Positions 11,713 to 18,671 of a stretch of DNA of 64,000 nucleotides are shown in pieces. Numbering within the stretch: the stretch's first letter is position 1; each line of letters opens with the position of its first letter. Location: positions 74,882 through 138,881 of the forward strand of contig CBDAFS010000039.1 of NCBI GenBank assembly GCA_965195285.1. Reading direction: 5' to 3'. Source of the stretch: an uncultured Aminicenantes bacterium. Its GTDB lineage: Bacteria > Acidobacteriota > Aminicenantia > UBA2199. The notes under the pieces are model-generated. The model ran no database searches and had not been told where the DNA came from. It saw nothing but the letters and a program-made list of their open reading frames with translations. A program made the translations under genes and the position numbers.

Positions 11713-12900
11713 TTAAGTGGATTTATTAAGTTCCAGACGATTGATGATATGTTGGTATTTCTTTTCAATCACCGGCCAGGAATAGTTGTCCTGAAAAAAT
11801 TGCACGCCATTTTCACCCAGCCTGGATCGAATCCCGGGGTTCCCCTGCAACAATAACACAATGGCCTTGAATTCCTCATAATCGGAATACCATAATCCCG
11901 CATTGCTGCGTTTGCATTGACCCTGGAGTACTTCGGTTCTTCCATTGGCAACCACCGGCTTCCCAATGGCCCAGGCCTCCAATGCCACCATGGAAAGCGA
12001 CTCAAACTGTGAGGGTATAATCAAAAAATCAGATCCTTTCAAGGCATCAAACTTTTCACTGTCAGATACAAATCCCAGATACCTGATTTTCGGGTGATCT
12101 GGAATTTCAATCAGTGATTTCCCCATCAGGACCAGGGTATAATCTATCTTCGTCTCCTCCAAGAATTTTAGATAAAATGAAAGCAGTTCCGGTATTCCCT
12201 TGTTTTCATCCAGGCGCCCGATATAGACAAAATAATTTTCAGGGATTTTGTATTTCTCCCGGAATACCCAAGGCGAAAATGAAGAGGGAATCTCCGAGCC
12301 CACACCCACGATATCTCCGATTACCGATTCATTTCCCGCCATTTGATTGATCATTGCCTTCTCTTCATGTGAATTGTAAACAATGGCTCCGGGTAAATTA
12401 AAAAAATTCTTGAACATCCTCAAATATATTACATCATCATGTTCGGCAGTGGGAACCAGAATTGATTTTTCCCGAAACCTGGTAATACCTTGAAAAGAAT
12501 GATAATAACGATATGAGAAAAAAATGAAATAATCAAATTCCCCTTCCCGGTTCTCCAGTTCTTTGATCAGGGCAGGTACCCTGGGTCCCTCTTCATCCAG
12601 CCAGGTTATTTCTTCCTCCAGGCTGTGTTCGTTGTTGAAAATAAAATTCTGAATTTTCCCGAACCGCTCCGGATCCCGGGTTTGATGGACATTAAAGCGG
12701 TTTACCCGGATACCATCCACTTGATCCTGACCCGGGGGGAAATGATGCTCCCAAGTAATGTAATCCAGGGCCGTGGTGGTAAAAACTTCAATTGCATAGT
12801 ATTTTGCCATTTTCTCGGTAATCAATTTGGCATGATATTCGGCACCCCCATTTATTTCCGAACCGTATCGCTGAACCACAATTGCAATTTTTTTAGCCAT
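11713..12900 (-). CDS. GT4 family glycosyltransferase
   Basis: GGAE near the N-terminus, GRLDENKG, PSQFESLSMVALEAW (EX7E). Confidence 0.9.
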   Translation of the reverse strand: MAKKIAIVVQRYGSEINGGAEYHAKLITEKMAKYYAIEVFTTTALDYITWEHHFPPGQDQVDGIRVNRFNVHQTRDPERFGKIQNFIFNNEHSLEEEITWLDEEGPRVPALIKELENREGEFDYFIFFSYRYYHSFQGITRFREKSILVPTAEHDDVIYLRMFKNFFNLPGAIVYNSHEEKAMINQMAGNESVIGDIVGVGSEIPSSFSPWVFREKYKIPENYFVYIGRLDENKGIPELLSFYLKFLEETKIDYTLVLMGKSLIEIPDHPKIRYLGFVSDSEKFDALKGSDFLIIPSQFESLSMVALEAWAIGKPVVANGRTEVLQGQCKRSNAGLWYSDYEEFKAIVLLLQGNPGIRSRLGENGVQFFQDNYSWPVIEKKYQHIINRLELNKST

Positions 12901-12996: not shown

Positions 12997-13287
12997 ATGA
13001 TCGTCATGAAACCAACCGCCAATCCCACGGCCAACCCCACGATAGTACTCAGGGAAGAATTCGACGACTGGGCCATTCTTTTTGATCCCGATACCGGTAA
13101 CGCTCATGGCATCAACCCGGTGGGTGTGTTTGTCTGGAAGCATCTGGACGGCCTGCATACTGCCAACCAGATATTGCAGAAGTTGCATGAAAGCTGTGAA
13201 ACTGTGCCCCAGGATGCTGAAAAAGATGTAAATGATTTTATTGAGGATCTTGTAAAAAGAGGATATGCCGGATATGAAGCCCGATAA
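12997..13287 (+). CDS. scmD: PqqD-family RiPP recognition element (SynChlorMet ScmD-like); real start may be 13006
   Basis: NPTIVLREEFDDWAILFDPDTG...INPVGVFVWKHLDG...DVNDFIEDL PqqD pattern, directly upstream of rSAM genes. Confidence 0.88.
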   Translation: MIVMKPTANPTANPTIVLREEFDDWAILFDPDTGNAHGINPVGVFVWKHLDGLHTANQILQKLHESCETVPQDAEKDVNDFIEDLVKRGYAGYEAR

Positions 13288-14395
13288 CCTTCATACCTCC
13301 ATGCGGCTGATGAAGACCCCGCGAACCGTTGATATTGCTATCACCAACAAGTGCAACCTGCGTTGCACTTACTGCTACCATTTTTCCAGTGCCGGCGATG
13401 TTGACGAGGACTTGCCAAAAGAGGAATGGCTCGGATTTTTCGAAGAATTGAAGCGCTGTGCAGTGATAGATGTTGTTTTGGCCGGTGGCGAGCCTTTCTT
13501 CCGCAAGGATTTAAGCGAACTGATAGAAGGTATTGTCAAAAACAATATGCGGTTTTCTATCCTCAGTAATGGTACCCTCATTACCGATGAAATCGCCGAA
13601 TTTCTATCTTCCACGGGACGATGTGATTATATTCAGGTTTCCCTTGACGGATCCAAACCTGAAACCCATGATACCTGCCGGGGTAATGGAAATTTTAATC
13701 GAGCCATTAAGGGTATCGAGTGTCTCCGAAAACATTCTGTTAATGTCCAGGTTCGCGCCACGATTCATAAGCATAACGTCACGGATCTTGAGGAAATGGC
13801 CCGGTTTTTATTGGAGGAAATCGGGCTTGAGAGCTTTTCCACTAATGCCGCTTCCTACATGGGCCTCTTAAGACAACATGTGGAGCAAGTGGGATTAACC
13901 GTTGAAGATCGAATGCTGGCCATGGAGTCCCTTGTCAGGCTAAACAAAAAATATGCCAATCGCATCAACGCCCAAGCCGGACCACTGGCAGAGGCTGCCA
14001 TGTGGGCCGAAATGAAGATCGCCCGCGACCAAGGAAAAAAACAGATTCCCGGTCGAGGGCATCTAACCGCCTGCGGCTGCGTGACGGTGAAAATTGCCGT
14101 CCGTGCCGACGGTGCCATTGTCCCTTGCACCATGCTCAGTCACATGAAACTCGGGCAGATCAATAAGGATGATTTTAAAGCAATCTGGCAAGACCATCCG
14201 GAAATGCGAAAAATGAGAGAACGACGAAATATCCCTTTAAGTGATTTTATATTCTGCCGGGAATGCGAATACATCAATTTCTGCACGGGAAACTGCCCGG
14301 GTCTTGCTTACTCGATTGTCGGGATAGTGAATCATCCGAGCCCGGATGCATGCCTGCGGCGATTTCTTGAGGATGGGGGAAGGCTTCCTTTATAG
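13265..14395 (+). CDS. scmE: radical SAM/SPASM peptide maturase (ScmE-like)
   Basis: CNLRCTYC, GGEP, SPASM cysteines CGC...PC...CRECEYINFCTGNC...C. Confidence 0.88.
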   Translation: MPDMKPDNLHTSMRLMKTPRTVDIAITNKCNLRCTYCYHFSSAGDVDEDLPKEEWLGFFEELKRCAVIDVVLAGGEPFFRKDLSELIEGIVKNNMRFSILSNGTLITDEIAEFLSSTGRCDYIQVSLDGSKPETHDTCRGNGNFNRAIKGIECLRKHSVNVQVRATIHKHNVTDLEEMARFLLEEIGLESFSTNAASYMGLLRQHVEQVGLTVEDRMLAMESLVRLNKKYANRINAQAGPLAEAAMWAEMKIARDQGKKQIPGRGHLTACGCVTVKIAVRADGAIVPCTMLSHMKLGQINKDDFKAIWQDHPEMRKMRERRNIPLSDFIFCRECEYINFCTGNCPGLAYSIVGIVNHPSPDACLRRFLEDGGRLPL

Positions 14396-14405
14396 TGAAC
14401 GATCG

Positions 14406-15533
14406 ATGAGTATCAACAAAGACCGAAAAGGACGAGCATATCCCTTGAATCAGATATATTTTTACCTGACCAAAGGATGCAACCTGCGCTGCCGTCACTG
14501 CTGGATTGCGCCGAAATTTCAGACCGAAAAGCGTTCCTATCCCGTTCTATCCACGGATCTTTTTCGATCCATCATTGAGCAGGCTAAAATACTGGGCCTT
14601 TACGGTGTCAAATTGACCGGTGGAGAACCCCTGATGCACCCTGATATTCATGAGATTCTCAAGTATATTAAGGAAGAAGATCTTAAACTTACGGTGGAGA
14701 CCAATGGGATTCTCTGTACCCTCGAAATTGCCCAAAAAATGGCGAACTGCAACAATCCATTTGTCTCGGTGAGCCTGGATGGTGCCGATGCCCCAACCCA
14801 TGAATGGGTGCGCGGAGTTTCCGGCTGTTTTGAGGAAACTCTTCAAGGCATACGGAATCTTGTTGATGCCGGATTAAAACCCCAAATCATCATGAGCCTC
14901 ATGCGGCGCAACAAAGATGAGATGGGGCGTCTTGTACAGCTGGCGGAAAAACTGGGAGCAGAATCGGTCAAATTTAACCTCACCATGCCCATCGCAAGGG
15001 GGAAGAAGCTGCATGATAGCGGAGAGACCCTGACCATTGAAGAGCTTGTAGAGCTGGGCTCGTGGGTGGAGAATACGCTTTCCGCTTCAACCGAACTGCG
15101 GCTGGTATACGATCATCCGACAGCCTTCCGTCCATTGGGAAAGATGTTTGGAAATAACGGGGATGGATGCAGCCGATGTGGAATCCTTGGCATTCTGGGA
15201 GTACTGGCAAATGGATCTTATGCCCTTTGCGGTATCGGGGAGAATGTGGCTGAATTGGTTTTTGGGCATGCGGAAACAGAACGCCTGGAGGATATATGGA
15301 AAAAGACCGATATTCTAAATGAATTACGTGAAGGACTTACAGAGCGCTTCGAAGGGGTCTGTGGAAGTTGTCTCATGAGATACTTGTGCCTGAGAAGCTG
15401 TATCGCCCAAAATTATTACCAGAACAAGAATCTTTGGGCACCTCATTGGTTTTGTGAAACGGCCAGGGGAAAAGGGCTCTTTCCGAAAACCCGGTTACAT
15501 TTTTCCAGCTCGAATAACAATTTAAATAAGTAA
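14406..15533 (+). CDS. scmF: radical SAM/SPASM peptide maturase (ScmF-like)
   Basis: YFYLTKGCNLRCRHCWIAP, GGEP, CGI...ALCGIG...CGSCLMRYLCLRSCIA...WFC. Confidence 0.88.
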   Translation: MSINKDRKGRAYPLNQIYFYLTKGCNLRCRHCWIAPKFQTEKRSYPVLSTDLFRSIIEQAKILGLYGVKLTGGEPLMHPDIHEILKYIKEEDLKLTVETNGILCTLEIAQKMANCNNPFVSVSLDGADAPTHEWVRGVSGCFEETLQGIRNLVDAGLKPQIIMSLMRRNKDEMGRLVQLAEKLGAESVKFNLTMPIARGKKLHDSGETLTIEELVELGSWVENTLSASTELRLVYDHPTAFRPLGKMFGNNGDGCSRCGILGILGVLANGSYALCGIGENVAELVFGHAETERLEDIWKKTDILNELREGLTERFEGVCGSCLMRYLCLRSCIAQNYYQNKNLWAPHWFCETARGKGLFPKTRLHFSSSNNNLNK

Positions 15534-15562
15534 TAGACAATATTGCAAAAGTATAGTATTCT
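15534..15562 (+). promoter_or_regulatory. possible internal promoter for the precursor peptide gene
   Basis: TAGACA-N17-TATTCT in the AT-rich gap after scmF. Confidence 0.3.
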
Positions 15563-15585
15563 CAAAGTAGACAAAGATAGCAGCG

Positions 15586-15822
15586 ATGAAATACGAAAAA
15601 CCATTACTCGTTGAATTGAATAATCCGAATATCGCGTATGGACTCTGTGCAAATGGTTCCGGCGACGAAGGGCCTTGTGGATCAGGGACTTCACCAGTTA
15701 CCAGATGTGTAATCGGTAGTAACGCTGGCGCGGCTTGTAATTCAGGTAATATCGCGAATAATAACTGTGTGAACGGAAGCTCGGCAGGAGGTCTATGTAA
15801 CCCTGGCAGCACCGCAAATTAA
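15586..15822 (+). CDS. RiPP precursor peptide with six CxxG repeats at 10-residue period
   Basis: Leader MKYEKPLL (YxxPxL); Cys at 21, 31, 41, 51, 61, 71; Gly/Ser/Asn-rich; lies between rSAM genes and scmC. Confidence 0.85.
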   Translation: MKYEKPLLVELNNPNIAYGLCANGSGDEGPCGSGTSPVTRCVIGSNAGAACNSGNIANNNCVNGSSAGGLCNPGSTAN

Positions 15823-15893
15823 GAGAACCTCAAACATCCGCCAGCGGTCTTGTATGAAACGATCTGTCAAGCAAAGAAGATGAGAGCCATATA

Positions 15894-16778
15894 ATGGAAG
15901 AACCCGAAAAATCCGAACCAGTGACCGTTCAAAGATCATATCATCTATCATTGAGTGATGGAAACCGATGGTGTTTTTCTGCAGATCACCGCAACACCCA
16001 TGTGTTAGATAACCTGGCTCGCATTATGCGACTCAATCAAGGGATCGTAAACGGCTCACCCAGGCTTATTTTCTGCAGTAATGGGTCCAATAGGGGAAAG
16101 GGTGCCAACAGGCATACCAATACGCATAAGCCCTTTCGGTTTTGGAAACATAACGGTGGACCTGATGTCTTTTGTGAGACAAATGACAACAGAGGACTTG
16201 AAATTCAATACTTACATATGTGGCATGGCCTTTTGCCTATCTACCGACAAAGTGTTCGTAAGGGAGGACTGGCTATACATGGGGCCTTGACTGAGCTAAA
16301 CGGCGAAGGATTTTTGATTATAGCACCGAGTGGTGGCGGAAAATCAACCTGCTATCACCGGTTTCCTGGTTACTGGCAGCCATTGTGTGATGATGAAGCA
16401 CTGGTTGTTCTCGACGAGCAAAAAAAATACCGGGCCCATCCATTTCCAACCTGGAGCGATTATCTTTGGAAACGTTCCCAAAGGACCTGGAATGTTCAGT
16501 ATTCGGTACCGCTTAAGGGATTATTTTTTCTTGAAAAAGCCGACATTGATACAGTCGAATCATTGGGAGAGGGTAAGGCCGTCGTATTAATGAATGCATC
16601 GGCCAACCAAGTTTTTGAAAAATACTATCGAATATTAAATAAAAAAGATCAAAGAACGCTTCGGCAGAGGTTCTTTAAAAATACCTGCCGTATGGCAAAG
16701 CAGATTCCGTCGTATCGTCTGTGTGTCAGCCGTGATGACAAATTTTGGGAAAAGATGGAAAAGGTCCTGGACCGATAA
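15894..16778 (+). CDS. scmC: ScmC-like HprK-related P-loop protein
   Basis: GGLAIHGAL, Walker A APSGGGKST, LCDDE, HPFPTWSDY. Confidence 0.82.
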   Translation: MEEPEKSEPVTVQRSYHLSLSDGNRWCFSADHRNTHVLDNLARIMRLNQGIVNGSPRLIFCSNGSNRGKGANRHTNTHKPFRFWKHNGGPDVFCETNDNRGLEIQYLHMWHGLLPIYRQSVRKGGLAIHGALTELNGEGFLIIAPSGGGKSTCYHRFPGYWQPLCDDEALVVLDEQKKYRAHPFPTWSDYLWKRSQRTWNVQYSVPLKGLFFLEKADIDTVESLGEGKAVVLMNASANQVFEKYYRILNKKDQRTLRQRFFKNTCRMAKQIPSYRLCVSRDDKFWEKMEKVLDR

Positions 16779-16937: not shown

Positions 16938-17717
16938 ATGAATATATATGTATGTATAAAACAGGTTCCTGATACCGAAGCTGTTTTAAATATTAAAGAA
17001 GGCAAGTTTATCAATGAAGAAAACATCAAATGGATTATCAGTCCCTATGATGAAATTGTCCTGGAATTTGCCCTGCAGTTAAAAGAGAAGAATCCGGACT
17101 TCAAGGTCACCCTGATTACGGTAGGTCCTCCCCGGGCAGAGAGCACTATTCGCAGTGGTCTGGCCATGGGTGCTGAAAGTGCCATTCATATTGAAGCGAG
17201 CGATTACCTTGATCATAAGACCATTGCCAAGGCATTGGCCCAGGCCTTGAAAAATGAGGGCGATTTCGGTGTCATCTTCACGGGGAAACAGGCCATTGAT
17301 GACGATGCGAGTTTGACCCATATTTATCTTGCTCAAAGCCTGGATATTCCGGTAGTCACAAATGTTATCGGATTTCAGATGGAAGCGGAGAAAGTCATTG
17401 TTGAGAGAGAGATTGATCAGGGAGCCAGGGAAAAAATCGAAATGGGTATCCCCTGTGTAATCGCTGCCACCAAAGGTATTAATGATGTTAACGAGCCCAG
17501 ATACGCTACCCTGATGGGTATCATGAAAGCCAAGAAAATACCCATTAAAAAAATATCGATTCAGGATCTGGGGATTAAAGATGCCACTCCTACGGTCACA
17601 CAGGAAAAACTGGAAGCACCGCCCGAAAAACCGTCCGGAAGAATCATTGAAGGCGAAGTTACAGAATCCATTAAAGAGCTGGTTAGATTGTTGAAAGATG
17701 AAGCTAAGGTATTATAG
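16938..17717 (+). CDS. etfB: electron transfer flavoprotein beta subunit
   Basis: VCIKQVPD, ISPYDE, LAMGA, GKQAIDDD, NEPRY. Confidence 0.96.
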   Translation: MNIYVCIKQVPDTEAVLNIKEGKFINEENIKWIISPYDEIVLEFALQLKEKNPDFKVTLITVGPPRAESTIRSGLAMGAESAIHIEASDYLDHKTIAKALAQALKNEGDFGVIFTGKQAIDDDASLTHIYLAQSLDIPVVTNVIGFQMEAEKVIVEREIDQGAREKIEMGIPCVIAATKGINDVNEPRYATLMGIMKAKKIPIKKISIQDLGIKDATPTVTQEKLEAPPEKPSGRIIEGEVTESIKELVRLLKDEAKVL

Positions 17718-17726
17718 GAGGAATCA

Positions 17727-18671
17727 ATGTCAAACATAGGCGTTTATATTGAGTTAAGAGGAGACGAGTTCAAAAAAGCAAACCGTGAAGCCCTTGGTCT
17801 GGCGAGATCAAGTGGAAAAGATGTATATGCAATTATTTTTACCAGAGACATCTCAGCCTATGAGAATGAATTCAAAGGAATACCCAAAGTCATTCAAATA
17901 AAAAATGAGAACTTGACCTATCAACCGGATGTATATGCAGCAACCATTGCCAACATAATGAAGGAACATCAATTAAACGACCTTTTAGGGGTTGCTTCCG
18001 CTCAGGGAAAGGATTTATTCCCTCGCATTGCAGCCAATACCGATGGCAGTATCATTAATGACTGCATCGCTGTGGATTTTGATAACCATACGGTTAAAAA
18101 ACCGGTTTATGCCGGGAAACTGATATCCACTTTCAAGTTAGGCGGTGAATTCCGGATTATTACCATCAGGCCCAATGTTTTTCCTGTAAAAGAAAAAGAA
18201 TCGGACAGCCAACCGGAAGTAATCGAGACTGGTATCGTGAAAATTGAAGAAAAATCAAAAATTATCGATATAATAAAAAGTGAAACCAAAAAGATTGATT
18301 TAACCGAAGCCGAGATTATTATTTCCGGTGGAAGAGGAATGAAGTCCAAAGAGAATTTTAAAATACTGCAAGAGGTGGCCGAAGTCCTGAATGCCGGTGT
18401 GGGGGCATCCCGCGCAGCAGTTGATTCCGACTATGCCACTCCGGATATGCAGGTCGGGCAAACCGGAAAAGTGGTAAACCCAAAACTCTATATTGCCTGC
18501 GGTATATCGGGAGCCATTCAGCACTTTGTTGGCATGAAAACATCTAAATTCATTGTGGCCATAAACAAGGATCCGGAAGCACCCATATTCAAAAAAGCGG
18601 ATTACGGCATTGTTGCCGATCTGTTTAAAGCCGTTCCCCTGCTGAAAGAAGAGCTGGAGAAAATTCTATAG
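17727..18671 (+). CDS. etfA: electron transfer flavoprotein alpha subunit
   Basis: SGGRG, GASRAAVD, QVGQTGK, GISGAIQH, AINKD. Confidence 0.96.
   Translation: MSNIGVYIELRGDEFKKANREALGLARSSGKDVYAIIFTRDISAYENEFKGIPKVIQIKNENLTYQPDVYAATIANIMKEHQLNDLLGVASAQGKDLFPRIAANTDGSIINDCIAVDFDNHTVKKPVYAGKLISTFKLGGEFRIITIRPNVFPVKEKESDSQPEVIETGIVKIEEKSKIIDIIKSETKKIDLTEAEIIISGGRGMKSKENFKILQEVAEVLNAGVGASRAAVDSDYATPDMQVGQTGKVVNPKLYIACGISGAIQHFVGMKTSKFIVAINKDPEAPIFKKADYGIVADLFKAVPLLKEELEKIL

Follow-up and report, generated by a model that had tools for sequence, protein, structure and literature searches.

In a stretch of 64,000 nucleotides from an uncultured Aminicenantes bacterium (contig CBDAFS010000039.1, positions 74,882 to 138,881; hereafter the window), an open reading frame (ORF) of 78 residues at 15586-15822 is very probably a real gene encoding a ribosomally made and post-translationally modified peptide (RiPP) precursor of the ScmA type, the substrate of the proteins encoded next to it in the order ScmD, ScmE, ScmF, peptide, ScmC on the plus strand. 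In NCBIfam/TIGRFAMs, this arrangement is known as the SynChlorMet (Scm) cassette, a family that is a database prediction; the ScmC, ScmD, ScmE and ScmF of the window all exceed the curated cut-offs of their models, and the peptide ORF lies between ScmF and ScmC. A first-pass annotation, made from the DNA letters, had proposed that the peptide is the precursor of such a cassette of radical S-adenosylmethionine (rSAM) enzymes, and this is borne out by its position, leader and core, all of which are shared with the peptides of other cassettes. The features concerned are the following.

15586-15822, plus strand: predicted ScmA-type precursor ORF, 78 residues, its translation identical to the sequence quoted in the first-pass annotation
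15586..15642, plus strand: predicted precursor leader, residues 1-19, MKYEKPLLVELNNPNIAYG, with a Y-E-K-P-x-L motif and an A-x-G end
15643..15822, plus strand: predicted precursor core, residues 20-78 and stop codon, with six C-x-x-G-(S/T/N) decamers
12997..13287, plus strand: ScmD, discrete PqqD-type peptide chaperone (RiPP recognition element, RRE), 96 aa; TIGR04248, 132.8 bits (cut-off 100)
13265..14395, plus strand: ScmE, radical SAM/SPASM enzyme, 376 aa; TIGR04250, 618.9 bits (cut-off 400); Pfam Radical_SAM and SPASM
14346..15533, plus strand: ScmF, second radical SAM/SPASM enzyme, 395 aa (longest ORF); TIGR04251, 589 bits (cut-off 400)
15894..16778, plus strand: ScmC, P-loop protein with an HPr-kinase/PEPCK fold, putative peptide kinase, 294 aa; TIGR04249, 270.3 bits (cut-off 125)

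The Cys residues of the peptide fall at positions 21, 31, 41, 51, 61 and 71, each followed by Gly at +3 and, in order, by S, T, S, N, S and S at +4, exactly as had been read from the sequence in the first pass. Equal spacing occurs in 570 of the 256,851,595 possible placements of six Cys over 78 positions (2.2e-6), and when residues 20-78 were shuffled 1,000,000 times, equal Cys spacing was obtained 9 times and Gly at +3 of all six Cys 14 times. The periodic Cys pattern is real and far from chance. Tandem Repeats Finder (minimum score 30) detected no array in positions 15500-15900, in agreement with the earlier remark that the DNA is not a simple tandem repeat, and the periodicity is therefore a feature of the protein level. 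Judging from the sequence, the boundary between leader and core probably lies at residue 19/20. The core has no predicted fold, with an AlphaFold predicted local distance difference test score (pLDDT) of 40-50 over residues 27-78, which leaves a folded mini-protein, whether a solenoid or a disulfide-rich one, unsupported.

Evidence that the ORF belongs to a family of precursors comes from profile searches. A leave-one-out profile built from 65 foreign peptides placed the ORF at the top of the genome's 57,293 six-frame segments (E 5.6e-18, 66.1 bits), with the peptide of this genome's second cassette, on contig C42, next (E 4e-8) and the best match in the reversed genome at E 0.76. An alignment search for relatives of the peptide retrieved 20 proteins, and an exhaustive search with the profile of an alignment of 25 peptides (A2, which includes the window peptide) yielded 2,532 representatives at E<=0.001, 68 of them at E<=1e-10. 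Among the 150 best matches of this search, 142 align from the leader onward and eight through the repeats only. One of these eight, P0144 (816 aa, E 7e-26), was rejected as an unrelated look-alike by period and composition, since it carries dozens of perfect CPDGSSDVKD decamers at its end and no leader. Another candidate, an ORF of 67 aa on contig C15 (L086 5320-5523, minus strand; E 0.03), starts with KKWEKPELIKL and has neither a Cys core nor a cassette around it; LpxA-like, DUF6599, DUF362, cold-shock and GH127 genes surround it, RiPP enzymes are lacking there, and this leader-like ORF is probably unrelated.

Using a profile of 20 ScmC homologues, we collected 80 ScmC loci from other genomes, which span Desulfobacterales, Syntrophobacterales, Syntrophales, Nitrospirae, Chlorobiaceae, Omnitrophota, Aminicenantes, Calditrichaeota, KSB1, Poribacteria, Fibrobacterota and Methanocella. 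A pattern combining the leader with three CxxG units picked out 65 peptides in 45 of the 80 loci and none in reversed sequences. The profile made from those peptides has matches at E<0.01 in 63 of the 80 loci (best reversed-sequence match, E 0.59), of which 45 had served to train it, so that independent support comes from the other 18 only; eight of the 17 loci without a match have fewer than 400 bases upstream of ScmC. The first-pass annotation had suggested looking for small ORFs with CxxG repeats beside homologous cassettes, and it is these 63 loci that provide them. The peptide lies directly 5' of ScmC in 55 of the 80 loci, between ScmF and ScmC in 40, the same arrangement and strand as in the window, and within the complete order D-E-F-peptide-C in 29. 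The canonical cassette is patchy among relatives, given that the TIGR04249 cut-off is exceeded in three of 60 related genomes (four of 61 with the window's own) and in none of the three genomes of the same genus. Some of the collected loci depart from the common scheme. Loci L064, L075 and L020 contain many precursor genes (up to eight profile matches along with three ScmC copies in L064), their peptides are long (100-130 aa), and the cores in L020 are very rich in Cys with CC pairs, which suggests expanded or variant sub-families. In genome G017, the ScmC match of locus L090 (contig C10, 64647-65171; 128.1 bits, over the cut-off) contains two in-frame TGA codons, perhaps the mark of a broken copy; contig C10 has another two ScmC-like matches besides.

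The leader and spacing statistics were obtained from 66 related peptides. The leader consensus is (K)-(Y 73%/W 26%)-(E)-(K/R)-P(100%)-x-L(80%)-(V/I)-x-L(74%), with Y and W together accounting for 99% at the first aromatic position, so that the Y-x-x-P-x-L leader reported in the first pass turns out to be a family-wide trait; the window cassette has a discrete PqqD-type ScmD to go with it. Y-x-x-P-x-L is the motif by which lasso-peptide leaders are recognized, and one family peptide weakly matches the lasso leader model NF033521 (E 0.023). In the core, Gly is found at +3 of 85% of 368 Cys, or of 116 out of 170 once the three that the search pattern forces in each peptide are discounted. Most residues at +4 and +5 are S, T or G; S and T are frequent at +2, +4 and +5, A occupies +6 in 37% of cases, and A at -4 and G at -2 are found with 33% and 35% of the family's Cys, rising to 39% and 62%, respectively, ahead of the first Cys. 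A Cys-to-Cys spacing of 10 is modal (118 of 304 intervals; 9-11 in 228 of 304), and the decamer C-x-x-G-(S/T/G)-x-A is the modal unit of the family. The perfect decamer phasing emphasized in the first pass holds for the window peptide, but the exact period is not conserved: all Cys spacings are equal in only seven of the 66 peptides, the window peptide with its six Cys being the longest of these, and the peptide of its closest relative (L003) has Cys at 22, 34, 44, 54, 65 and 74. The number of Cys per family peptide ranges between 3 and 14. Downstream of the last Cys, 68 of 92 peptides have a tail of 6-8 residues (seven in the window peptide) and eight have one of less than 6, suggesting that the modified unit needs about six residues downstream of the Cys.

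ScmD is identified well above its cut-off and, with weaker scores, matches lasso PqqD chaperone models (34.5 bits); it is 52-89% identical to its homologues in 24 related loci. Prediction of a complex between ScmD and the leader lends weak support to their interaction, with a score of 0.49 against 0.02 for the best control. The mark applied is reached by 116 of 157 solved complexes and two of 215 mismatches, and scores of 0.60 or less comprise 18 of the 157 and both mismatches; repeated runs agree in at least 76% of the contacts, with a partner pLDDT of at least 54. Given our own alignments and the existence of solved RRE-leader complexes, the pass may reflect likeness only. ScmE and ScmF both display a CX3CX2C motif and the full SPASM Cys pattern: CNLRCTYC and the SPASM Cys are evident in the translation of ScmE, and CNLRCRHC and CGSCLMRYLCLRSC in that of ScmF. 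The true start of ScmF may be the Met codon at 14406, downstream of the ScmE stop; the TIGR04251 match begins at residue 32 of the longest ORF. The closest solved chain of ScmE is SkfB (E 5.6e-21), with anSME also among its solved relatives, and the closest solved chains of ScmF are BlsE, SkfB and PqqE.

The idea that ScmC is a kinase, which had been raised as a possibility in the first pass, received support from profile and structure comparisons. The precomputed Pfam label of ScmC is PF27840. The ScmC family profile matched only HPrK/P chains in the PDB (best E 0.027, over the P-loop and DD region), and the hidden Markov model alignment pairs GtGKs and DDE of ScmC with the corresponding HPrK/P motifs. 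The AlphaFold model of ScmC (pLDDT 85.8) matched PEPCK in Foldseek (E 1.4e-8). With VIA-align, it superposed on PEPCK with Z 13.3 (root-mean-square deviation 5.6, 256 aligned residues) and, through residues 121-294, on four HPrK/P chains with Z 8.5-9.3 (3.5-4.0, 119-125 aligned). H129, G149, K150, T152, D166, D167 and E168 are invariant among 20 homologues. ScmC thus combines the fold, the P-loop Lys and the acidic DD motif by which PEPCK/HPrK-type proteins are recognized, which supports its assignment as a putative phosphotransferase. A segment resembling the P-loop part of ScmC (E 1e-7 to 1e-11) is also held by open frames of about 650-720 aa elsewhere in the same genome (contig C14, 19739-20050) and in genomes G001, G024, G026, G028, G035, G038 and G048; these frames may represent a larger HPr-kinase-like protein common to these related genomes.

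The genes that accompany the cassettes were defined by clustering of neighbouring ORFs followed by Pfam and NCBIfam scans of representatives. An S24/S26 signal-peptidase-like gene of about 200 aa lies directly downstream of ScmC in 53 of the 76 loci with room for it and is present anywhere in 65 of the 80; a PF14907 nucleotidyltransferase is found in 35 and an MsbA/bacteriocin-type ABC exporter in 33 of the 80, and L040 has the peptidase and nucleotidyltransferase joined in one fusion protein. The window cassette differs from most SynChlorMet loci in having none of the three alongside. The genome does, however, encode a second cassette, where such genes are found:

contig C42, L083 1-7849, minus strand: second, divergent Scm-like cassette of the same genome

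Its genes follow the order 212-aa PqqD-containing protein, ScmE-like, ScmF-like (398.5 bits), peptide, ScmC-like (37.2 bits on TIGR04249), S24/S26 peptidase, ABC exporter and PF14907 protein, the ScmE-like radical SAM/SPASM enzyme having been assigned by tblastn with the ScmE of the window. The peptide (77 aa) has a KYEKP leader and five Cys at a spacing of about 11-12. The PF14907 gene is cut by the contig end, and contig C41 opens with a later portion of such a gene, so that C42 and C41 may be continuous with each other. The presence of a peptidase and an exporter in the C42 cassette makes processing and export of the window peptide in trans possible. The S26-like peptidases of the related loci and of C42 score 54-64 bits with signal peptidase I models and 23.5-38.8 bits with the nickel superoxide dismutase (NiSOD) protease model. 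Signal peptidases favour small residues at -3 and -1. The leader cut after A-Y-G proposed in the first pass fits this rule, with A at -3 and G at -1 ahead of the first Cys, and is also in keeping with the S26-like genes in 65 of 80 family loci, but no peptidase gene is found in the window cassette itself, and this part of the proposal stands only if the enzyme comes from elsewhere.

By contrast, the other genes around the window cassette do not appear to belong to it. The genes for electron transfer flavoprotein (ETF) beta and alpha (16938-18671) follow ScmC after 160 bases on the same strand; their homologues occur in none of the 80 related loci, and the adjacency thus looks incidental. The GT4 glycosyltransferase gene upstream (11713-12900) and a DegV/Dak2 gene were dismissed on the same count, 0 of 80 for each.

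Taken together, these observations incline us, with some reserve, towards a scheme in which a ScmA precursor would pass through an RRE step, iterative ring formation by rSAM enzymes, phosphorylation by ScmC and leader removal in trans. ScmD would bind the K-Y-E-K-P-x-L-V-E-L leader and present the disordered core to both radical SAM/SPASM enzymes, a step suggested by the conservation of the leader, the firm identification of ScmD, the weak NF033521 match and the complex prediction. ScmE and ScmF would then act repeatedly, once per unit of about 10 residues, C-x-x-G-(S/T/N)-x-A-x-x-x, each Cys forming one small thioether ring to a residue within the next six, either the C-alpha of Gly +3 or the S/T/N at +4, to give up to six tandem rings with a loss of 2 Da per ring. 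ScmC might phosphorylate Ser or Thr residues of the peptide, and an S26-type peptidase supplied in trans, that of the paralogous C42 cassette being one candidate, could remove the leader after A-Y-G. That the Scm rSAM enzymes form thioethers at the Cys is a tentative element of this scheme, to which we assign a shade less than even plausibility. A local thioether per Cys is favoured by the invariant Cys of each unit, Gly +3, the required tail, the likeness of ScmE to SkfB and the freyrasin precedent discussed below; the estimate is held down by model scores far below cut-offs and by the lack of a conserved side-chain acceptor. If thioethers exist, the C-alpha of Gly +3 is as good an acceptor candidate as the residue at +4.

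Several results weigh against this interpretation, some bearing on the chemistry and others on the gene itself. Outside the Scm models, ScmE scores highest with WgkB and the heme enzymes NirJ/AhbD, and ScmF with AhbD/NirJ2, with MftC also among the best for the Scm rSAM enzymes, and both proteins remain far below the cut-offs of thioether synthases: ScmE scores 101.6 bits with PapB (cut-off 340), 115.4 with StsB (625), 83.9 with AlbA (850) and 86.6 with SkfB (300), and ScmF 97.3 with StsB (625) and 75.4 with AlbA (850). As the best non-Scm models are not those of thioether synthases, homology is not specific for thioether chemistry. Across the family, no position offers a conserved side-chain acceptor, with Gly making up 21% and Asn 10% of the residues at +4, and, as mentioned above, neither peptidase, nucleotidyltransferase nor exporter accompanies the window cassette. 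No Shine-Dalgarno-like motif is evident upstream of the peptide ATG on reading the sequence, the promoter-like site at 15534-15562 matches the consensus in only 9 of 12 positions, and a consensus scan found no terminator-like site after the ORF. Cassette DNA is present in sequencing runs of several studies, and metatranscriptome run X6 has a contig of 472 letters, 447 of which match positions 15424-15870 without differences and so take in the complete ORF plus 162 bases upstream and 48 downstream; further short contigs of X6 and X9 cover ScmC, the ScmE/F junction and the ETF genes. The X6 contig counts in favour of the gene as a weak hint of transcription, contigs from RNA libraries proving none and being unable to rank genes; cassette stretches that X6 and X9 leave uncovered carry no information.

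The peptide is also poorly captured by existing models. It has no Pfam or NCBIfam match at E<=0.01, and the only NCBIfam match at E<=1 is TIGR04252, SCM_precur_ScmA (E 0.018), in which residues 3-48 align with model positions 1-49; the score of 15.2 bits lies under the cut-off of this equivalog model (35 bits). The same cut-off is reached by none of 25 Scm-type cassette peptides, those of the window and C42 included (best 28.1 bits), and 12 of the 25 match at E<=1 at all, showing that the model is narrow and discriminates poorly. Accordingly, annotation would miss the window peptide, and such genes would be named 'hypothetical' or left uncalled, as had been anticipated in the first pass: relatives named in source databases are 'hypothetical protein'. 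The nearest clusters of the peptide in the ESM Atlas, also labelled 'hypothetical protein' (scores 0.89-0.92, low recognition), are uninformative. The SCIFF (six cysteines in forty-five) precursor model, TIGR03973, gave no match in the same NCBIfam search at E<=1, its presence in the release being unchecked. We consider the peptide a divergent, sub-threshold member of the named, predicted ScmA family (TIGR04252). No experimental work on any member of the Scm family was found, subscription journals and supplements lying outside the search, and a term search of PMC10288494 returned no Scm or TIGR terms. Other repeat precursors, of the TVGG and Asp-Cys kinds, have been described, and these are not of the ScmA type (PMC9062424).

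How do the alternatives compare? That the ORF arose by chance and is no gene is effectively refuted. It would agree with the lack of a clear ribosome-binding site and with the failure of a word-index search to find the peptide in a collection of 5.8 billion proteins that did yield the neighbouring ScmC, a result which is no proof of absence; such a reading is hard to reconcile with the leave-one-out match (E 5.6e-18 against 0.76 for the best control), the peptides that sit immediately ahead of ScmC in 55 of 80 loci, the rarity of equal spacing and of six Gly +3 in shuffled cores (9 and 14 in 1,000,000) and the 2,532 representatives retrieved with the A2 profile at E<=0.001. A more substantial challenge, unlikely but far from negligible in our estimation, retains the precursor and the cassette and assigns another radical chemistry to each repeat, for example H-abstraction that ends in formylglycine-type oxidation, an epimerisation, or cross-links of the C-C or C-O kind, with the Cys left free, as disulfides or as metal ligands. 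The models and structures closest to the enzymes outside the Scm families (WgkB, NirJ/AhbD, MftC and BlsE types) speak for it, as does the presence among the solved relatives of ScmE of the SPASM member anSME, whose chemistry takes place at the C-beta of Cys or Ser, according to PMC8326336, and the conservation of two rSAM enzymes implies at least one further reaction. Nevertheless, an invariant Cys in every repeat with Gly +3 and a tail of about six residues is what a donor Cys with a local acceptor would be expected to leave, SkfB is the closest solved relative of ScmE, and the six Cys-to-Asp bridges of freyrasin, as described in PMC8326336, offer a precedent.

There are two further alternatives. 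An S26-like peptidase might cut at recurring A-x-G sites, releasing several modified decapeptides in place of one 59-residue product. The enrichment of A at -4 and G at -2 before internal Cys as well as before the first (33% and 35% against 39% and 62%), the variable number of repeats (3-14 Cys per peptide) and the peptidase genes in 65 of 80 loci are compatible with such a multi-core precursor, but the internal frequencies are modest, about two of the five internal junctions of the window peptide resemble A-x-G, and no precedent was retrieved, which renders it improbable. Class III and IV lanthipeptide synthetases carry out phosphorylation followed by elimination, and it is conceivable that ScmC phosphorylates Ser or Thr at +4 or +5, to be followed by elimination and addition of the Cys, with the rSAM enzymes engaged in something unrelated. 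The kinase fold of ScmC and the frequency of S and T at +2, +4 and +5 would suit this lanthionine-type route; however, no lyase or cyclase domain was found in the cassette, 21% of the family's +4 residues are Gly and 10% Asn, and neither rSAM enzyme would have anything to do at the only residues that are invariant, making the route more improbable still.

From the SynChlorMet cassette as defined in NCBIfam, the window peptide differs in its sub-threshold score on TIGR04252 and its six perfectly phased repeats. Freyrasin (PapA/PapB) resembles ScmA in its regularly spaced Cys, expected small local rings and iterative SPASM rSAM enzyme. The freyrasin motif is C-X3-D, whereas ScmA has no conserved Asp acceptor and Gly at +3 instead, ScmE reaches only 101.6 of the 340 bits required by the PapB model, and the Scm cassette has two rSAM enzymes, a discrete PqqD protein and a kinase-fold protein. 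Freyrasin is a ranthipeptide with six Cys-to-Asp C-beta thioether bridges (PMC8326336). Sactipeptides (SkfA/SkfB, subtilosin/AlbA and streptosactin) likewise depend on a SPASM rSAM enzyme and an RRE acting on a core with Cys, and a C-alpha link to Gly in ScmA would be a sactionine; the known ones, again according to PMC8326336, have nested hairpin bridges from clustered Cys, whereas ScmA has one Cys per decamer, and ScmE scores 83.9 bits on the AlbA model with its cut-off of 850.

The phosphorylated and phosphoglycosylated lasso peptides, such as paeninodin and pseudomycoidin, share with the Scm cassette the Y-x-x-P-x-L leader, a discrete PqqD/B1-like chaperone and an HPr-kinase homologue. The likeness extends to the nucleotidyltransferase of related Scm cassettes, fused in L040 to a putative leader peptidase; the lasso nucleotidyltransferase may likewise be a PF14907 member. 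They differ in that Scm cassettes have rSAM enzymes in place of a lasso cyclase and the ScmA family lacks a conserved C-terminal Ser. By Pfam, no transglutaminase-type B2 protease or asparagine-synthetase-like cyclase was detected in the window cassette and its neighbours, in representative accessory genes of five related loci or in the C42 cassette genes, the ScmF-like, ScmC-like and peptide ORFs of the latter lying outside the scan. In lasso clusters, according to PMC8498205, the kinase phosphorylates a Ser, whose phosphate receives hexoses from the nucleotidyltransferase, an enzyme in some cases fused to the B2 protease. Finally, the peptidases of Scm loci match the models of cytoplasmic S26 maturation proteases (NiSOD protease, TIGR02754, and signal peptidase I), and the small residues at -3 and -1 agree with this; yet the archaeal-type signal peptidase I model is the only one whose cut-off (51.85) they surpass, a hydrophobic signal-peptide core is missing from the precursor, and no peptidase gene lies beside the window cassette.

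Since both the cassette and the precursor type are already catalogued, the peptide gene itself is no discovery. What is added here is a definition of the family, consisting of the leader motif, a unit of about 10 residues, C-x-x-G-(S/T/G)-x-A, and a tail of about six residues, along with an extended gene set comprising an S26-like peptidase, a PF14907 nucleotidyltransferase, an ABC exporter and a ScmC with an HPr-kinase fold. As no experimental study was found, the ScmA family, being large and clearly delimited, lends itself to work on rSAM peptide chemistry, for which the six-repeat, perfectly phased peptide of the window would be a clean substrate. A bolder possibility, doubtful for the present yet worth stating, is that the family constitutes an uncharacterised RiPP class, widespread in anaerobic bacteria and Methanocella, in which two SPASM rSAM enzymes would cooperate to install one small ring per about 10 residues with the near-invariant Gly +3 or a neighbour as the acceptor, followed by phosphorylation by the HPr-kinase-fold enzyme and, where a cassette includes PF14907, by decoration on the phosphate as in pseudomycoidin. 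If so, the window peptide would carry up to six tandem rings, and its relatives have up to 14 Cys, in a topology unlike both the hairpins of sactipeptides and the C-X3-D bridges of freyrasin.

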